DNA from: an uncultured Clostridium sp.
GTDB lineage: Bacteria > Bacillota > Clostridia > TANB77 > CAG-508
Reading direction: 5' to 3'
DNA: 64,000 nt
Assembly (NCBI GenBank): GCA_902462295.1
Contig: CABQAZ010000001.1
Location: forward strand, 12,215-76,214
This document shows positions 2,913 through 9,608 of the stretch, in pieces. The notes beneath the pieces are model-generated. The model saw only the letters and a program-made list of their open reading frames with translations. It did not search any database and was not told the origin of the DNA. Made by a program: the position numbers and the translations under genes. Position 1 is the first letter of the stretch. Every line of letters begins with the position of its first letter.

Positions 2913-3249
2913 GCAAAAAAATGAGATATGTGGTCAACATATCTCTGTGAACATTCGAGTTCTTCGATTTATTCTCTTGCTTAAGCTAAATATAGTATAC
3001 TATATTTTTTATTATATGTCAAATGTTTTTTGAATATTCATTTTTTTTAATTTACTTTTATAATTTATTAAAATAATTTCTATTCGCAATATATCATAAA
3101 ATAAGTAAAAATACTAGCATTTTACATAAAAATGTGATAAAATAGTAATCAAGTGCTAGTAAATACTAGTTTTAAATTTTTATACTCCTGTTTTACAGGT
3201 TGATATATAGGCAGTTAATACAAAATAAATATTTTAAGGAGGAAGCTTT

Positions 3250-3909
3250 ATGGAAGAAAAATTAAAAAATTCAATGAGATTTTATATGTTAGCCACACAG
3301 CTTAAATATAAGATAAGAAGTGGCTGGGATAAATCACATTGGAATGTGAGTAAAGATCGGGTAGAAAGCATTGCGGAACATGTTTATGGGACTTGCATTT
3401 TAGCTTTAAGTATTGATTCTGAATTTAAAACAAATTTAGACATCAATAAAGTTATAAAAATGCTGGTTCTTCATGAATTGGGAGAAGTTATTATTGGTGA
3501 TATTACACCATTTGACAACATAACTCCTGAAGAAAAAATGAAAAAAGAACATGAAGCAATGAGAGAAGTTATTGGCGACTTGGTTAATCAGGAGGAGTTT
3601 CTTTCATTACTATTTGAATTTGATGAAAAGAAGACCAAAGAAGCAGTTTTTGCTCATCATTGTGATAAATTGGAAGCAGATATACAAGCTAAAGTTTATC
3701 AAGATATGGGATGTCAGCATCAGTTAGATGAGCAAGAAGATAATGTGGTTTTCAAGAGCAATAAAGTTCAACAGATGGTAAAAGATGGGGCTCAAACTGC
3801 ATTTGATATTTGGTATGAATGGGATAAATCATTGTACTATGATGACGAAGATTTTGCCAGACTTCTTGATTATGTGAGAACAATCAATACTCAAGAACTT
3901 TTAAAGTAA
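3250..3909 (+). CDS. HD-domain phosphohydrolase, YfbR-like 5'-deoxynucleotidase family
   Basis: Motifs SIAEHVYGTC and LVLHELGEVIIGDITP (H...HD...D) are characteristic of YfbR/HDDC2-type HD nucleotidases. Confidence 0.7.
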   Translation: MEEKLKNSMRFYMLATQLKYKIRSGWDKSHWNVSKDRVESIAEHVYGTCILALSIDSEFKTNLDINKVIKMLVLHELGEVIIGDITPFDNITPEEKMKKEHEAMREVIGDLVNQEEFLSLLFEFDEKKTKEAVFAHHCDKLEADIQAKVYQDMGCQHQLDEQEDNVVFKSNKVQQMVKDGAQTAFDIWYEWDKSLYYDDEDFARLLDYVRTINTQELLK

Positions 3910-3942
3910 CTCGTAAACTAATTAGTTAAGGAGGTATACACA

Positions 3943-4404
3943 ATGGAAATGAAAACTTTAAATTTGGACTCGGTAAAGGAAATTCGGGATTTAGCCAGAA
4001 GAAAGGACAGAGATTTTTTTAACTTTGTTGATGAACTTGAAAAGATTTTAAAAACTCAAAAGCCTGGAGAATGGTTTAAAAGACCGATAGATGTATGTGA
4101 TGTAACTTTAGATGAAGTATGGGAACAAAAGTTAGGTACTATTAAGTATCGTAAAACAATACATACATTTTCATGTATGTATGTTCCTAACCAGGGAGTT
4201 GCAATAAGAGAACATGGGCATAATCAGCTTGTGCATACAGATCACAATGGAGATATAAAGAAAACAAGAGAATTATATATTTTCTATGTACCGTCTTCAT
4301 TAGTAGAAATGAAATTCTGTAGTAAGGATGAAACTCATCAATTATGCAACAATTATGGTTGTCCAGTATATGTTATATCTGCAAAGGTAACAGGTAGAGG
4401 TTAA
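3943..4404 (+). CDS. Hypothetical protein, co-operonic with the HD nucleotidase
   Basis: 153-aa ORF 33 nt downstream of the HD gene. RBS AAGGAGG. No recognised motif. Confidence 0.5.
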   Translation: MEMKTLNLDSVKEIRDLARRKDRDFFNFVDELEKILKTQKPGEWFKRPIDVCDVTLDEVWEQKLGTIKYRKTIHTFSCMYVPNQGVAIREHGHNQLVHTDHNGDIKKTRELYIFYVPSSLVEMKFCSKDETHQLCNNYGCPVYVISAKVTGRG

Positions 4405-4464
4405 AGTTTTATCATTTGCATTATAAGTAATAAGAGGGTTAGTTTAGGCTAATTCTCTTATTCC

Positions 4465-5712
4465 TTATATTTCTAAATTCCATTCTTTTTCTCTTTCTTC
4501 GTGTTTAAGTTGTTTTTCTGGATTAATAAAAGTGTGAGTTTCATCTTCGAATTTTTTTACTAATTCTTTTGATTCTCCAATACCAAATTTGTGACAAATC
4601 CAAACTATAAATTTATCAACTGTTTCATAAAATTTATCAATAATTTCGTGTAAATGGTTATTTTCTTTTTCCAATGACCTAATTTTATTTTTGTATTTAT
4701 ATTCAATATCAAATTCTTTATTTTTAAATTCATCCTCTAAATCTCTTTTTCTATTATTAAATTCCATATCAAGAGAATTATTCTTTTTCTTATATTCATG
4801 TTCTAAATGTTCTACAGTATTGTGTAATTCTTTATTATCAGCAAGTATTTTATCTCTTTCCTTTTGGTATTTTTCAGCCTCATTAATAACTTTAGACTGT
4901 TTAGATAATTCCTTATGCAATGAAAGATTATCTTTGTATAATTCTTTAATTAACTCATCTTTAGGTTTTATAATTTCTTCTAGTATTTTTTCATCTCTTT
5001 TTAATGAAAATTTACTAATATCGGTTATCTCAGGAACATCTGGTAATTCTAATTTTATTTCATTCAAAACCTTTTTAGTATTTTCATAATTAGTAATTTG
5101 TTTATATTCTTCAACAGTATAATGTTTTCTGTGAGTATCTTCTACAAACATACCTCTTTCTAAATCAAAGCCTTTTGATTTTACATGATTAAAGTAGGCA
5201 TCTTGTAATTTTCTGTAACTATCTCGACCTTTCCAAAAATCTCTTGCACAAATTTTATCAACATTGTTACCTTCTTTATCTTTTGTGTGAACAACAGGAA
5301 CAAGCATTAAGTGCATATGTGGTGCTCCTTCATCTAAATGCACAACTGCTGATATTATATTTTTTTCTCCTAGACTTTTATAATTGCAGATAAATTTATA
5401 ACATTCATCAAAATATCGTTTTGTTTTTTTTTCTCCAATTTTGTCAAAAAATACTTGGTCAGAAGTAAACATCATTTGACACATTATTATACTGTTACTA
5501 CGAAGATGTCCTTGTACATTATTTTCTTTTAAATACTTATCAAATTCTTTTGTATATGTTAGCTCATTTTTCTTAATGTAATAATTCAAATGTGTTTTTG
5601 TTGGATCAATATCTTTATTAGTATGATTTTTTGCTTTTCTATCATTGTGAGTTCCTTTTCCGTTTATTTCTGCTCGTGTTAATTTTTCATTTCTTACGAT
5701 AGCGTAACTCAT
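4465..5712 (-). CDS. mob: MobV-family (Mob_Pre / MobM-like) relaxase
   Basis: MSYAIVRNEKLTRAEINGKGTHNDRK...HLDEGAPHMHLMLVPV matches the N-terminal relaxase motifs of pMV158 MobM-type proteins. The C-terminus is a coiled-coil. The probable start is the internal ATG at 5712 (RBS GAAGGAGGTG) rather than the track start at 5772. Confidence 0.8.
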   Translation of the reverse strand: MSYAIVRNEKLTRAEINGKGTHNDRKAKNHTNKDIDPTKTHLNYYIKKNELTYTKEFDKYLKENNVQGHLRSNSIIMCQMMFTSDQVFFDKIGEKKTKRYFDECYKFICNYKSLGEKNIISAVVHLDEGAPHMHLMLVPVVHTKDKEGNNVDKICARDFWKGRDSYRKLQDAYFNHVKSKGFDLERGMFVEDTHRKHYTVEEYKQITNYENTKKVLNEIKLELPDVPEITDISKFSLKRDEKILEEIIKPKDELIKELYKDNLSLHKELSKQSKVINEAEKYQKERDKILADNKELHNTVEHLEHEYKKKNNSLDMEFNNRKRDLEDEFKNKEFDIEYKYKNKIRSLEKENNHLHEIIDKFYETVDKFIVWICHKFGIGESKELVKKFEDETHTFINPEKQLKHEEREKEWNLEI

Positions 5713-5754
5713 ATCTCCATGCACCTCCTTCTTCGCTTGAGATATTGTTTCAAT

Positions 5755-5792
5755 GTCTAACACACTAGACAAACAAAGTTTGTCTGTGTGGC
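5755..5792 (-). promoter_or_regulatory. Candidate oriT: inverted repeats with a GTGTG/TT nick-like motif
   Basis: Lies immediately upstream of mob. The minus strand reads gacaaacTTTgtttgtc then gtctaGTGTGttagac. TAGTGTGTTA resembles the pMV158 MobM nick region (TAGTGTG/TTA) within a hairpin loop. Confidence 0.5.
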
Positions 5793-6342
5793 AGGGTTAC
5801 TTAACCCCACACCCCAAAACCCAAAATTGCCTACCTGCATTTTTAGGTTTTTTCATAAAAATTTGCTTGTCGCAATTTTTATGAATGTGAGCAAAAAAAT
5901 AAATTTTTTACTCACAACAAAAAAGCACTTATGCTTTTTTGGATTCACTTTAGCAACTACAAAGCAGAAACCAGAGGGAGAGAGCTAAAGTGAATTAGGT
6001 GTAATAATCCCATTCATGAAAAATAGAATTATTACACCTATATAAGTTGAAACCGTCGGTCGTTCGCCTCGTTTCATAGGTAGTCTAGTAAGTAGCTTTT
6101 GCCACTATAATTGCTGATACAGTTAAGTATCTTTGTTCATACTTGCCCAAACTTTTTACAATTACAAATCCATTTCAAGTTTTGCCACCGAATACTCTTT
6201 TATTATTGTGAGTCTGTGTTCCAAAATCTCACTCACGCACTTTGTATAATTAGACTGCTTATACAAATACGAATGAACTTTATAGCATCGGCTCATCACA
6301 CCAAACACTTTTTAAGAGGTGTTGCATTTCTCTTTTGCACGA

Positions 6343-6385
6343 CAAAAAAGCCCGTTTGTAGATTTTTATTCTACAAACGGACTTT
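6343..6385 (-). terminator. Rho-independent terminator after the TIR gene
   Basis: Minus strand reads ccgtttgtagaataaaaatctacaaacgg followed by gcttttttg. Confidence 0.6.
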
Positions 6386-6435
6386 ATCGTAATCTTATAT
6401 TTTTTATTTTTTTACAATTCACTTAAAATTAATTT

Positions 6436-6846
6436 TTATATTGAATAATTACGGATTGCTTCTACAATAGAATCAGTATTCCAATTAACTATTGTATCAG
6501 CAACATTTGATAGTTCTTGTGGCATTCTTTCTGCACATCTAGGTCTAATTGCTATAATAGGCTTGTTATAATATTGTGCAATTTCAATCTCTTTTTGAAT
6601 CCACTTTCTATAATCTACATACATACCAGCCAATACAATAACTACATTTACAGGTTTTATTTGTCTGTATAGAGCTTCTTCTAATTGAGTATTAGTTTTA
6701 GTATTTAAAGCATCATGTTCTGGAACACTATAATTTCTAAAATAGAAATTAGGATATTCTTGTAATTTTTCAACTAGAGAATAATATTCACTATTGTAGT
6801 CCCAAGAATGGCTAATAAATAAATCATAAGTTTTTAAACTTGGCAT
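6436..6846 (-). CDS. ThsB-like TIR-like domain protein (DUF1863 family)
   Basis: Start MPSLK at 6846 follows RBS AGGAGG. YDLFISHSWDY...NVVIVLAGMYVDYRKWIQKEIEIAQYYNKPIIAIRP matches the FxSxxxxD ... vLxG...s.W...EI......KPII pattern of Thoeris ThsB / DUF1863 TIR-like proteins. Confidence 0.55.
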   Translation of the reverse strand: MPSLKTYDLFISHSWDYNSEYYSLVEKLQEYPNFYFRNYSVPEHDALNTKTNTQLEEALYRQIKPVNVVIVLAGMYVDYRKWIQKEIEIAQYYNKPIIAIRPRCAERMPQELSNVADTIVNWNTDSIVEAIRNYSI

Positions 6847-6866
6847 AATTAATCCTCCTTTCATTG

Positions 6867-7352
6867 TCATTTAATAGTTATAATAATTTGAACTTTACTA
6901 ACTAAAAAATATATTATAATTGAAATATAAGAAATTATAAAAATAAATGGTAAAAACATTTCCAATTTACTTACTGGTATATATTTTTTATTAAATTTTG
7001 TTTTAGTCAGAATGTTCCATTCCATTTTGTATAAGTTAATTGGCAAATATTTTTCTACTTCTTGTATGATATGAAATTTACAACTGTTAATTTGTTTATA
7101 ATTTTTTAAGTTTAAGAACCACAAAGTAGAAAAAATAATACCTAAAAGTGCTAAAAGCAATAATAAAGATGTATTAGAAAAAAATATAGTCATTATTGTT
7201 ATTAATGCTGAATTTAATGTTATAAAAAATGTATTTACATTTATTCTTCTATCACTTATTTTATCAGCAGATTCTATATAAGTTTTATATTGTTCTAATA
7301 AATTATTTTTATCTGTATCATTTGTGAGATTGTTTTTGTTAATTAATTTCAT
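6867..7352 (-). CDS. Small multi-pass membrane protein, operon partner of the TIR-like protein
   Basis: 161 aa. N-terminal roughly 45-aa soluble segment, then two TM helices (TFFITLNSALITIMTIFF and LLLLLALLGIIFSTLWFL), a roughly 50-aa loop and a C-terminal TM. Its stop lies 18 nt upstream of the TIR start. RBS GGAGG. Confidence 0.55.
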   Translation of the reverse strand: MKLINKNNLTNDTDKNNLLEQYKTYIESADKISDRRINVNTFFITLNSALITIMTIFFSNTSLLLLLALLGIIFSTLWFLNLKNYKQINSCKFHIIQEVEKYLPINLYKMEWNILTKTKFNKKYIPVSKLEMFLPFIFIISYISIIIYFLVSKVQIIITIK

Positions 7353-7643
7353 ATGTATTTAATCCTCCACACAAAGATTATACCACAAAATGACAGAAAT
7401 TCAAGAAAATTAACAAAATTTGTAAGTTACAAAATGTCAATGATAAGTTATACTGTTATTCTATCAAAAGTTCTAACATAGTTCTAACACTTAATTCAAA
7501 ATTTTAGAAAAGGACTTTTTGGATTGTTATTGCATATTTAACAATACTTGTGCTATAATCTCCTACAGAGAAGCTAAATAGGCCAATTATCAAAAGAGAT
7601 TAATTGATGTTATCTAATGTTAAAAAACAGATGGCGTAAAATT

Positions 7644-7699
7644 CTTAAAATCCTGCGGTTGAATAAACCGTGCCGGTTCGATTCCGGCCATCTGCACCA
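7644..7699 (+). other. 3' fragment of class-II tRNA-Leu(TAA): anticodon loop through CCA only; putative att site repeat
   Basis: cttaaaaTCCTG cggttgaataaaccg t GCCGGttcgattCCGGC catctgc a CCA. This matches tRNA-Leu from the anticodon loop (TAA), through the long variable arm and T-arm, to the acceptor 3' strand. No D-arm, 5' acceptor strand or anticodon 5' stem lies upstream. Confidence 0.6.
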
Positions 7700-8215
7700 T
7701 AGCATATCTGTTCGAACAAATAGAACAGAGAGATACAAAAATTAATCAGAAACTAGAATTTGAGAAATGTCTAAAACAAAGGCTAGAGTTTATATGTGAG
7801 TTTTCAAAAGTTAATCTAACTTTTATCAATGGTAGCATTAGAAAATTAGAAAAAACTAATCTTACATATATAGAGCCACATAGAATAATTATTAAGAATA
7901 TTACTTTTTAGTATTTAATTATTCTAAAGAAATTACTCACTTAATCAAACTACAAAAAAAGCAGGAGTTAAAAATTTTGATAGATTTCATAATAGTGGAT
8001 ATAAGGGACTATATAATGGAGAAACCGCTGATGACGTTGCAAAAAGAAAAGGCTTAAGATATAGAAAAGATATTTTGGATAATATGGGAAGTGATGAACT
8101 TATTGCAAATTTATTTAGAACTTCCCAAATAGATAAAAATTTTTTTGATTTTACTAGATTAATTATACTTAATATGGTAGAATATGATTATAAATAAATA
8201 AAAGGAAAACAGAAT

Positions 8216-9316
8216 ATGATAAAAGATATAATTAAATATGGAGAAGCAGAAATAACTTATAGAAACAAGAAACTATTGTCGGAAAAGCCTAAATTAAAAA
8301 ATTTGTTTTGGGAAACGACACTTAGATGTAATGCTAACTGTAAACATTGTGGAAGTCGAGCTGGTGAAAATTTAAAATTAGAAGATGAATTAACTACTGA
8401 AGAAATTAAGAAAATTCTACAAGATATAGCTAATAAGTATGATTCAAGAGAAATACTGATAAATGTTACAGGAGGGGAGCCATTATTAAGACAAGATTTG
8501 TTTAGAGTAATGGAATTTGCTAATAAATTAGGATATTATTGGGGAATGACTACAAATGGAATTTTAATAAATGATGAAATAATTGAAAAAATGAAACAAA
8601 CTGGAATGAGTACAATTTCAATAAGTTTGGATGGATTAGAAAAATCTCACGATGAATTTAGACAAGTAAAAGGTTCATACAAAAAAATAATTGAAAATGT
8701 AAAGAAGCTAAATAAAGCTAATTTTTTAAATTATTTGCAAATAACAACTGTTGTAAATAAATCAAATATAAATGAATTAGAACAACTTTATAATGAAATA
8801 TTAGCATTACAAATAGATTCATGGAGAATCTTGAATATGGAGCCAATTGGTAGAACAGCTGATAATCAAGATTTGCTACTTAATGGTAACGAATATAAAA
8901 CTTTGCTAAACTTTATAAAAGAAAAACGAAAAAAATCAAATTTTGATATTACATATGGGTGTTCTCATTTTTTAGGTATGAAATATGAAAAGGAAGTTAG
9001 AAATCATATGTTTTTTTGCATTGCTGGATTTATTACAGCTAGTATATTGTATAATGGGGATATTTATGTTTGCCCTAGTGTTGAACGAAGAAAAGAATTA
9101 ATACAAGGAAATATTCGAACAGATGATTTTGTAGATGTTTGGGAAAATAAATTTAAATGGTTTAGAAGTTTGGACAAATTAAAATGTGAAAAATGTGAGA
9201 ATTGTAATGAGTGGAAATATTGTTTAGGAGGCTCTTTGCATAATTGGGACTTCAATAATAGAACACAAAAATTTTGTTTAAATGAAATTTTAAAAGGAGA
9301 TGTATCAAATGAATAA
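8216..9316 (+). CDS. Radical SAM / SPASM-domain protein (peptide-maturase-like)
   Basis: CNANCKHC (CxxxCxxC) and GGEPLL motifs, plus a C-terminal Cys-rich SPASM-like segment CEKCENCNEWKYCLGG. Confidence 0.75.
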   Translation: MIKDIIKYGEAEITYRNKKLLSEKPKLKNLFWETTLRCNANCKHCGSRAGENLKLEDELTTEEIKKILQDIANKYDSREILINVTGGEPLLRQDLFRVMEFANKLGYYWGMTTNGILINDEIIEKMKQTGMSTISISLDGLEKSHDEFRQVKGSYKKIIENVKKLNKANFLNYLQITTVVNKSNINELEQLYNEILALQIDSWRILNMEPIGRTADNQDLLLNGNEYKTLLNFIKEKRKKSNFDITYGCSHFLGMKYEKEVRNHMFFCIAGFITASILYNGDIYVCPSVERRKELIQGNIRTDDFVDVWENKFKWFRSLDKLKCEKCENCNEWKYCLGGSLHNWDFNNRTQKFCLNEILKGDVSNE

Positions 9317-9608
9317 AATGAAAAAGGTAATATCAAGTATTGGAGCTTTTTTTGTTTGTATGATATCTAAAGTATATGCAATTGAAACGGGTGACATAAT
9401 ATCAATGTATGCAGTAGATCCAGGTCCAAGACGAACTATTCAAACTATTGGAAAAATAACAAATCCATTTGTGTTATTTATTATAGGATTAATTGTAATA
9501 CTTAATAAAAGGATTACTAAAAAAGTAAAAGCGATAGTAGTTTCAATTTTAGCTATATTAGCAATACTTGGCATAGTTTTAAGTAATTATTTATCTACAA
9601 TTATTTAA
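9309..9608 (+). CDS. Small membrane protein (signal or TM anchor plus two TM helices)
   Basis: ATG at 9309 is better spaced from AAAGGAG than the track start at 9300. Hydrophobic segments VISSIGAFFVCMI, FVLFIIGLIVIL and IVVSILAILAILGIVL. It overlaps the rSAM gene end. Confidence 0.45.
   Translation: MNKMKKVISSIGAFFVCMISKVYAIETGDIISMYAVDPGPRRTIQTIGKITNPFVLFIIGLIVILNKRITKKVKAIVVSILAILAILGIVLSNYLSTII

Follow-up and report, generated by a model that had tools for sequence, protein, structure and literature searches.

A pair of genes at positions 6436–7352 on the minus strand of a 64,000-nt stretch of DNA from an uncultured Clostridium sp. (GenBank assembly GCA_902462295.1, contig CABQAZ010000001.1, positions 12,215 to 76,214 of the forward strand; hereafter the window) probably constitutes a Thoeris-type abortive-infection cassette. 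The upstream gene encodes a membrane protein of the 8xMP/RipA family and the downstream gene a small ThsB-like protein consisting of a TIR domain only. According to our analysis of sequences, predicted folds and gene neighbourhoods, the TIR protein would sense infection and emit a signal, and the 8xMP protein would act as the membrane effector that kills the cell. The gene structure, the family memberships of both proteins, the TIR fold with its intact Glu, and a wide linkage of the two genes in defence and mobile contexts, independent of their order, are directly supported and are laid out below.

The TIR protein matches the Pfam family ThsB_TIR (PF08937) with an E value of 2.9e-17 and 63.3 bits against a cutoff of 21.2 bits, and is also hit by the ThsB models of PADLOC (best E 1.5e-13) and by phrog_6988 (6.6e-39). 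Its top sequence match in the PDB is the TIR-like protein MTH538 (1e-8), and NCBIfam holds no model for either the TIR or the membrane protein. An AlphaFold2 model derived from 44 homologues (predicted local distance difference test score, pLDDT, of 81.6) displays strands alternating with helices, and Foldseek searches with this model returned MTH538, EcThsB (8wcf), the B. cereus TIR 8fz9 (with the highest TM-score, 0.71) and SARM1. Residues W82 and E86 are invariant across the 44 homologues and fit the W-x-x-x-E-I motif that harbours the catalytic Glu of ThsB-type TIRs; in PsTIR, E79Q, the substitution equivalent to one at E86, abolishes type IV Thoeris defence. Sequence and model together predict a TIR fold with an intact putative catalytic Glu, an assignment far above chance. 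An earlier sequence-only reading of this locus, which had placed the protein among ThsB/DUF1863 TIR domains and proposed structure prediction to look for the fold and the Glu, is borne out on both points. Among TIRs with assigned signals, the window TIR is 49% identical to that of E. coli 328 type IV Thoeris, which produces N7-cADPR (an isomer of cyclic ADP-ribose, cADPR), 40% identical to the Yersinia type VIII TIR and 37% identical to the Pseudohongiella type VII TIR, the latter two producing cADPR (Yirmiya et al., 10.64898/2025.12.03.692087).

The 161-amino-acid (aa) partner, far from being minimal and unclassifiable, is by sequence comparison assignable to a large named family. It matches Pfam PF24838, 'Octameric membrane protein family (8xMP)', essentially from end to end (profile positions 1–135 of 136; E 1.1e-38, 132.6 bits versus a 30-bit cutoff), which in hmmscan is its sole Pfam match at E≤1 and leaves no room for a Macro domain, in keeping with the initial assessment that the protein is too short for a Macro or SLOG domain. 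All of its homologues carry PF24838, and for some members of the family the NCBI product name is 'RipA family octameric membrane protein'. A profile search of 1.84 billion representatives of 50% identity clusters retrieved 4,145 proteins at E≤1e-3 and 2,728 at E≤1e-10, and 8xMP loci were found 418 times in GTDB species genomes, across bacteria, archaea and lineages of the candidate phyla radiation (CPR). What the sequence-only reading had described as a minimal variant that joins a TIR sensor to a membrane effector remains the best-supported reading, but the partner belongs to a named family and the configuration has already been predicted elsewhere as 'TIR + 3TM' (see below).

Hydropathy and an AlphaFold2 model agree on three transmembrane (TM) helices, the number anticipated, at residues ~41–59, 63–82 and 133–154; the cytoplasmic N-terminus comprises ~40 instead of ~45 residues. 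The model, a monomer prediction with a pLDDT of 85, is all-helical (helices 12–56, 61–100, 107–117, 127–131 and 133–160). Two segments, residues 1–40 and 83–132, are predicted to be cytoplasmic, the second containing 10 Lys/Arg versus 4 Asp/Glu. Nearly all invariant or near-invariant residues fall into these two segments or their membrane borders, and they are rich in Lys, Arg, Tyr and Trp (Q21, Y22, K23, K31, S33, D34, R35, R36, N40, Y85, K86, N89, K92, E100, Y108, E111, W112, Y124 and E131 among them). PDB sequence and profile searches with the 8xMP protein yielded chance-level TFIIE matches only and no solved relative, and PADLOC gave a weak partial match (E 4.9e-4, residues 35–90) to PDLC00724, a 4TM effector of cyclic-oligonucleotide-based antiphage signalling systems (CBASS).

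Linkage of the two genes was surveyed in 83 loci, comprising 80 genome loci fetched with the 8xMP profile and three metagenomic loci, in which all open reading frames (ORFs) were scored with local hidden Markov models (HMMs). In 54 of them, from bacteria, archaea and CPR bacteria alike, the 8xMP gene has a small TIR gene as its immediate same-strand neighbour; 21 of the 54 adjacent TIRs belong to the family of the window TIR and 33 to a second family that is 44–50% identical to the type IV Thoeris TIR of Pseudomonas sp. 1-7. Gene order is variable, with the TIR gene upstream of 8xMP in 48 loci and downstream in six, including the window-related clostridial loci L002, L006 and L016. One of the 83 loci has a 373-aa TIR_2 fusion protein upstream of 8xMP, and three are cut by contig ends. 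The linkage counts (54/83) led us to reject a chance adjacency of the two genes. Four operons combine two TIRs with one 8xMP (L036, L056, L057 and L077), and a caspase-like protease and 8xMP share an operon in C. perfringens plasmids as well as in L045 and L046. When 8xMP clades were compared with the family of the partner TIR, no clean split emerged (identity 45–46% within and 42% between groups), so we draw no argument from co-evolution.

The pair was encountered in CPR bacteria, archaea, cyanobacteria, proteobacteria and Bacillota, the carriers including C. botulinum and a Bacillus genome. In the C. perfringens plasmids, the last TIR gene of the arrangement caspase-TIR-8xMP-TIR is 75% nucleotide-identical to the window TIR gene. 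One such plasmid (NZ_CP065633, L001, of the cpb2 toxin plasmids) carries at 5920–8233 an operon of caspase, TIR (155 aa), 8xMP (145 aa) and TIR (130 aa) genes, which mixes parts of type IV Thoeris with the 8xMP pair and in which 8xMP is annotated merely as 'hypothetical protein'. On annotated plasmids of Haematospirillum, Polaromonas and Synechococcus, a 'TIR domain-containing protein' abuts an 8xMP 'hypothetical protein'; the Haematospirillum pair adjoins the toxin-antitoxin genes HicAB, RelE and BrnA, and on another annotated plasmid the pair adjoins a type I restriction enzyme and a PIN protein. On a Joint Genome Institute (JGI) contig, where the pair proteins are 50% and 71% identical to those of the window, the neighbours are a DNA methylase and an MwoI-like endonuclease. 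The survey of homologue neighbourhoods suggested by the sequence-only reading has thus returned both co-localised pairs and restriction-modification neighbours, and the outcome named there as a refutation, a pair nowhere co-localised and nowhere in defence islands, clearly did not occur. In L003 (7613–8483, TIR followed by 8xMP), both genes need genetic code 25 (TGA = Gly), and the module therefore extends to CPR bacteria of the Gracilibacteria type; two methyltransferases and an AIPR protein lie next to this pair, with serine recombinases on either side. Of three TIR homologues sampled, one (Desulforudis) is solitary and flanked by transposases. Phage genomes gave no cassette match in a nucleotide search, and the phage protein search gave one record only, likewise a plasmid, so the cassette is not typically phage-borne, although its TIR matches phrog_6988. 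A holin or lysis-cassette reading was rejected in view of the strongly conserved cytoplasmic motifs, the archaeal occurrence and the lack of matches in phage genomes.

Some 8xMP genes have other companions. In L004 (2–913), L005 (1–657) and L024 (5586–5888, cyanobacterial), 8xMP is preceded by an alpha/beta-looking domain (VVLILGRF...FIIADITSP...) with no recognisable TIR; this domain is fused to pentapeptide repeats in L004 and L005, Pfam assigns no family to it, and it may be a divergent TIR-like or SLOG-like sensor. The ORF upstream of 8xMP in L030 (5642–5962) has no obvious similarity.

Several lines of evidence lead us to favour a Thoeris-type cassette with 8xMP as the effector. The window TIR is homologous to validated signal-producing sensors, and within the same TIR clusters 8xMP occupies the slot of known effectors (caspase, SLATT, CMP hydrolase, '3TM'). 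Operons with two TIRs and a single 8xMP exist, and type V Thoeris provides a close precedent with a different three-TM effector. Finally, the pair adjoins restriction-modification and toxin-antitoxin genes and rides on plasmids and on mobilizable elements at different chromosomal sites. From these comparisons we infer sensing, signal identity, ligand gating, pore formation and a defence phenotype, conceived as follows. The 136-aa TIR-only protein would be both phage sensor and enzyme and, upon infection, would turn nicotinamide adenine dinucleotide (NAD+) into a second messenger derived from ADP-ribose, probably an isomer of cyclic ADPR, for example N7-cADPR or canonical cADPR. The messenger would bind the conserved basic and aromatic cytoplasmic face that 8xMP presents with its N-terminal helix and TM2–TM3 loop. 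8xMP, envisaged as a homo-oligomeric, nominally octameric inner-membrane protein with three TM helices per protomer, would open or rearrange upon binding, whereby the membrane would be depolarised or permeabilised and the cell would die or arrest ahead of phage progeny. As to the signal, relatives in the TIR cluster make N7-cADPR or canonical cADPR (10.64898/2025.12.03.692087); there is only a hint that it might be N7-cADPR, because both 8xMP-linked TIR families are type IV families and because 8xMP shares operons with the caspase effector.

A number of observations weigh against this assignment of roles. About 30% of the surveyed 8xMP genes have no adjacent TIR, and in four of the 83 loci (L012, L014, L025 and L035) the partner is a caspase-like protease alone; if 8xMP were purely a signal-gated effector, such pairs would amount to two effectors without a sensor. 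Ten longer PF24838 members were inspected for TIR-8xMP fusions and none was found (their N-terminal extensions contain no Pfam domain), Pfam and PDB comparisons reveal no recognisable ligand-binding domain in 8xMP, and its putative octameric state derives from the family name. The 'TIR + 3TM' configuration was predicted from genomic context, stood outside the 30 operons tested and carries no type number (10.64898/2025.12.03.692087). Furthermore, RipA of Francisella is tied to intracellular growth and to LpxA, not to phage defence, and is encoded by a stand-alone gene (PMC2767360, PMC4322802).

In the four caspase-8xMP pairs (L012, 420–1917; L014, 4958–6459; L025, 5057–6474; L035, 1868–3336), the protease (Peptidase_C14, ~320 aa) is encoded directly upstream of 8xMP, and an HMM scan detected no TIR gene within 4 kb. 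L014, L025 and L035 stem from metagenome-assembled genomes (MAGs) of Bacteroidota; the MAG that contains L012 is bacterial but unclassified. A ~700-aa protein and a LuxR-type response regulator precede the pair in L014 and L025, and in L025 a TIR-like ORF lies 4.5 kb away on the opposite strand. Such pairs could form a system that works without any TIR, or they could be two effectors that depend on a TIR encoded at another site.

The caspase-8xMP loci would also fit a scheme with reversed roles, in which 8xMP is a shared upstream module, a membrane sensor or anchor responding to phage DNA injection, envelope stress or holin action, and the effectors alternate, namely the TIR protein as an NAD+-depleting enzyme or, where it is the partner, the caspase-like protease. 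Many bacterial TIR proteins are indeed NADase effectors (10.64898/2025.12.03.692087), and the lack of a known ligand-binding domain in 8xMP would suit this scheme. We nevertheless consider this scheme unlikely: the nearest characterised relatives of the window TIR are TIR-only phage sensors that signal to separate effectors, 8xMP, caspase, SLATT and CMP hydrolase replace one another as partners of TIRs from the same clusters, which is the effector position, and the operons with two TIRs and one 8xMP resemble Thoeris systems with multiple sensors and a single effector.

Quite improbable, in our view, is a pair without immune function, with 8xMP serving the homeostasis of the envelope or of lipid A (a role proposed for Francisella RipA) and the TIR-like protein acting, with the same fold, as a nucleotide N-glycosidase or nucleoside-processing enzyme (MilB-, DNPH1- or YtoQ-like) in a metabolic or stress pathway. 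Foldseek did return the CMP N-glycosidase MilB, DNPH1 and deoxyribosyltransferases with the TIR model, Pfam and NCBIfam gave weak YtoQ matches, and NCBI applies the name 'RipA family' to proteins whose namesake is linked in the literature to LpxA and GlmU (PMC4322802). In Pfam, however, ThsB_TIR outscores the deoxyribosyltransferase families on the window protein by 63 to 15 bits, and the TIR cluster includes experimentally validated Thoeris sensors. Likewise, the patchy spread on plasmids and mobilizable elements near restriction-modification and toxin-antitoxin genes, together with the flipped gene order, is the pattern of defence cargo and not of housekeeping genes. Very improbable is an addiction or stabilisation module of the toxin-antitoxin kind, with 8xMP as an intrinsic toxin restrained by the TIR-like protein and no second messenger: two small, tightly coupled genes as the outermost cargo of a mobilizable element, beside its relaxase, and the toxin-antitoxin neighbours on the Haematospirillum plasmid would suit it, but an invariant catalytic Glu within a TIR active-site motif is unexpected for a stoichiometric antitoxin, the pair also resides at plain chromosomal sites, and 8xMP occurs alone or with other partners in ~30% of loci and would therefore not be toxic by itself.

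We return to the favoured Thoeris-type cassette and its organisation in the window (Table 1). Both minus-strand ORFs of the proposed two-gene operon were found where the sequence-only reading had placed them; the distance between stop and start is 20 nt and not 18 nt as given there, counted from the TGA of the 8xMP gene at 6867–6869 to the ATG of the TIR gene at 6846. Counted from its first ATG, the TIR ORF spans 6436–6870 (144 aa), this ATG (6868–6870) overlapping the upstream stop codon as ATGA. We favour the ATG at 6844–6846, which yields the 136-aa product already proposed (N-terminus MPSLKTYDLF), because AGGAGG with a 7-nt spacer precedes it and because most TIR homologues have 136 aa. 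Public gene calls for the TIR cluster are divided between 144 and 136 aa. A promoter-like site and a strong intrinsic terminator flank the pair and thereby delimit a self-contained bicistronic unit. In this AT-rich stretch, 13 promoter-like matches were found versus 12.3 expected in shuffled sequence, which makes the site weak evidence for a promoter; terminator-like sites in the region numbered three versus 0.1 expected.

Table 1. Positions, in window coordinates, of the genes and sites of the 8xMP-TIR locus and its mobile element
Feature	Position	Strand	Remarks
8xMP/RipA-family membrane protein gene (putative effector)	6867..7352	(-)	ORF; 161 aa; upstream gene; three predicted TM helices and two cytoplasmic segments
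ThsB-like TIR-only protein gene (putative sensor and signal synthase)	6436..6846	(-)	136 aa; downstream gene; putative catalytic Glu86 in W82-I-Q-K-E86
Shine-Dalgarno AGGAGG of the TIR gene	6854..6859	(-)	Read from sequence; 7-nt spacer before start codon
Promoter-like site: TTGAAT, 16-nt spacer, TG-TATAAT (TTGAAT-16-TGTATAAT)	7377..7404	(-)	~25 nt upstream of the 8xMP start codon
Intrinsic terminator (16-bp stem plus T-run)	6347..6385	(-)	50 nt downstream of the TIR stop codon
MobV-type relaxase (Mob_Pre)	4465..5772	(-)	PF01076, E 5e-43; same element, directly downstream of the operon
3' fragment of a tRNA gene, ending ...GGTTCGATTCCGGCCATCTGCACCA	7638..7700	(+)	From sequence; element end (attachment site, att)

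The proposal that the pair is cargo of a tRNA-associated mobilizable element also holds, given the Mob_Pre relaxase, the tRNA 3' fragment and the point at which homology to related elements (L086, L087) stops, namely window positions 7700–7707. Since this homology ends exactly at the tRNA fragment, the mobilizable element is an integrative one with the operon as its outermost cargo. The gene order 8xMP-TIR-Mob is identical in L086–L089; in these related elements the 8xMP protein is 89% identical and the 8xMP-TIR-Mob region shares ~76% nucleotide identity with the window. They are inserted at two distinct chromosomal locations, with a tyrosine integrase at the far end, and the integrase end of the window's element would therefore lie beyond the window start. 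The 63-nt tRNA fragment was not called as a tRNA by ARAGORN or Rfam. L087 contains a second copy of it, 86% identical, ~350 nt outside the element.

Elsewhere in the element, the cargo region at window positions 3069–4452 varies. The window has an HD_3 domain phosphohydrolase (3250–3909) and a 153-aa ORF without family match, and L086–L089 carry PASTA/Ltp, Band_7/SHOCT and TM2 genes at this position, which appears to be a variable accessory slot. Just beyond the element end, at 8216–9608 on the plus strand, a radical SAM/SPASM enzyme gene (366 aa) is followed by an overlapping gene for a 102-aa membrane protein. The two may be a peptide-maturation pair resembling those of ribosomally synthesized and post-translationally modified peptides (RiPPs).

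For the window itself the meaning is modest: a Clostridium-like integrative mobilizable element carries, at its edge, one more cargo pair of the defence type. A TIR joined to a membrane effector will not surprise the specialist; the effector family, in turn, is large, structurally unassigned and pan-prokaryotic, and its name ties it to a virulence factor of Francisella. Should it be validated, TIR + 8xMP would represent a compact and very widespread Thoeris type (4,145 clusters and 418 GTDB loci, archaea and CPR included), 8xMP would be a new solution to nucleotide-gated membrane killing, with neither a recognisable ligand-binding domain nor a structural relative, and the RipA family, founded on an intracellular-growth factor of Francisella, would become open to a first mechanistic explanation. 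The TIR + 8xMP cassette is also small and easily tested. It is possible, though we advance this tentatively and with some doubt, that 8xMP/RipA proteins form a new class of ligand-gated, ring-forming membrane effectors that open in response to a cyclic ADPR isomer made by the TIR (plausibly N7-cADPR), and with their TIRs a widespread new Thoeris type spanning bacteria, archaea and CPR; RipA would then be a domesticated or orphaned immune effector, and the caspase-8xMP pairs a related, TIR-independent system.

Turning to known systems, F. tularensis RipA, ~178 aa long and encoded by 537 nt, is a homo-oligomeric protein of the cytoplasmic membrane in which two cytoplasmic domains are essential (PMC2767360, PMC4322802). 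The window protein resembles it in size and in predicted topology, and it is the NCBI product name that ties RipA to PF24838. RipA is monocistronic, whereas the window 8xMP gene is part of a two-gene operon. In the literature searched, we found no paper joining RipA to TIR signalling and none linking PF24838, 8xMP or RipA to Thoeris.

Of the features of a Thoeris system, the locus has a ThsB-type TIR with the catalytic Glu motif and, within one operon, a candidate effector gene whose linkage to the TIR gene is conserved. A scan of ten neighbouring ORFs detected no SIR2, SLOG, caspase or cyclase gene near the operon. The locus differs in this respect from type I Thoeris with its SIR2-SLOG effector ThsA (the window partner itself has no SIR2 or SLOG match either) and from CBASS, in which a CD-NTase cyclase is combined with a TM effector. 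In type II, a Macro domain is fused to TM helices, for which the 161-aa protein has neither a match nor the room, and type VII employs a SLATT effector, a family not matched by the window protein in Pfam. Types II and VII nonetheless also use membrane effectors (10.64898/2025.12.03.692087), and these (Macro-TM ThsA/ThsC, SLATT/ThsH), like the CBASS 4TM proteins, are membrane-spanning killers gated by a nucleotide-derived signal; the window protein is distinguished from them by being too short to hold a ligand-binding domain of its own. Type IV Thoeris (TIR + caspase-like protease; Rousset et al., 10.1101/2024.10.24.620036) has a TIR homologous to that of the window, but its effector is a Peptidase_C14 protease and not a membrane protein, and no caspase-like gene is present in or near the window operon.

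The closest counterparts are found in the work of Yirmiya et al. (bioRxiv, December 2025), whose search of ~600 million proteins for defence operons with TIR proteins led to the annotation of 29 putative Thoeris types and the validation of types V–XI (10.64898/2025.12.03.692087). Their Table S1 includes a putative effector class '3TM' with at least 100 rows; among the 13 of these rows examined, the TIR belongs to cluster 2734565194 in 11 and to 2556961318 in two, and in the rows considered the former cluster also contains TIRs of type IV (caspase), type VII (SLATT) and type VIII (CMP hydrolase) (10.64898/2025.12.03.692087). As in the window, the putative 'TIR + 3TM' type combines a TIR-only protein of the same sequence cluster with an adjacent small three-TM protein. 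The window TIR is 40–60% identical to the 13 '3TM' TIRs examined, the 60% being reached with entry IMG 2678864786, and was itself not found among the Table S1 rows searched. The TIR of IMG 2678864786 is 96.9% identical to that of L016, which abuts an 8xMP (PF24838) gene, and on this ground, a comparison of TIRs and not of effectors, at least part of the '3TM' class may correspond to PF24838. The text of Yirmiya et al. contains no occurrence of PF24838 and does not equate the 3TM protein with PF24838 or RipA (10.64898/2025.12.03.692087).

Type V Thoeris (ThsB + ThsF, DUF2270/PF10028) is, like the window locus, a two-gene operon with a small three-TM effector. ThsF has been modelled as a ring-shaped homo-oligomer with basic pockets between protomers and is activated by 3'cADPR (10.64898/2025.12.03.692087). 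At the level of sequence profiles, the window protein matches PF24838 and not PF10028 (hmmscan, E≤1), and the type V TIRs in the Table S1 rows considered fall into clusters other than that of the window TIR. The logic proposed for the window locus is, however, identical to that of type V, and the locus is a further instance of a computationally predicted Thoeris configuration and not a categorically new system.

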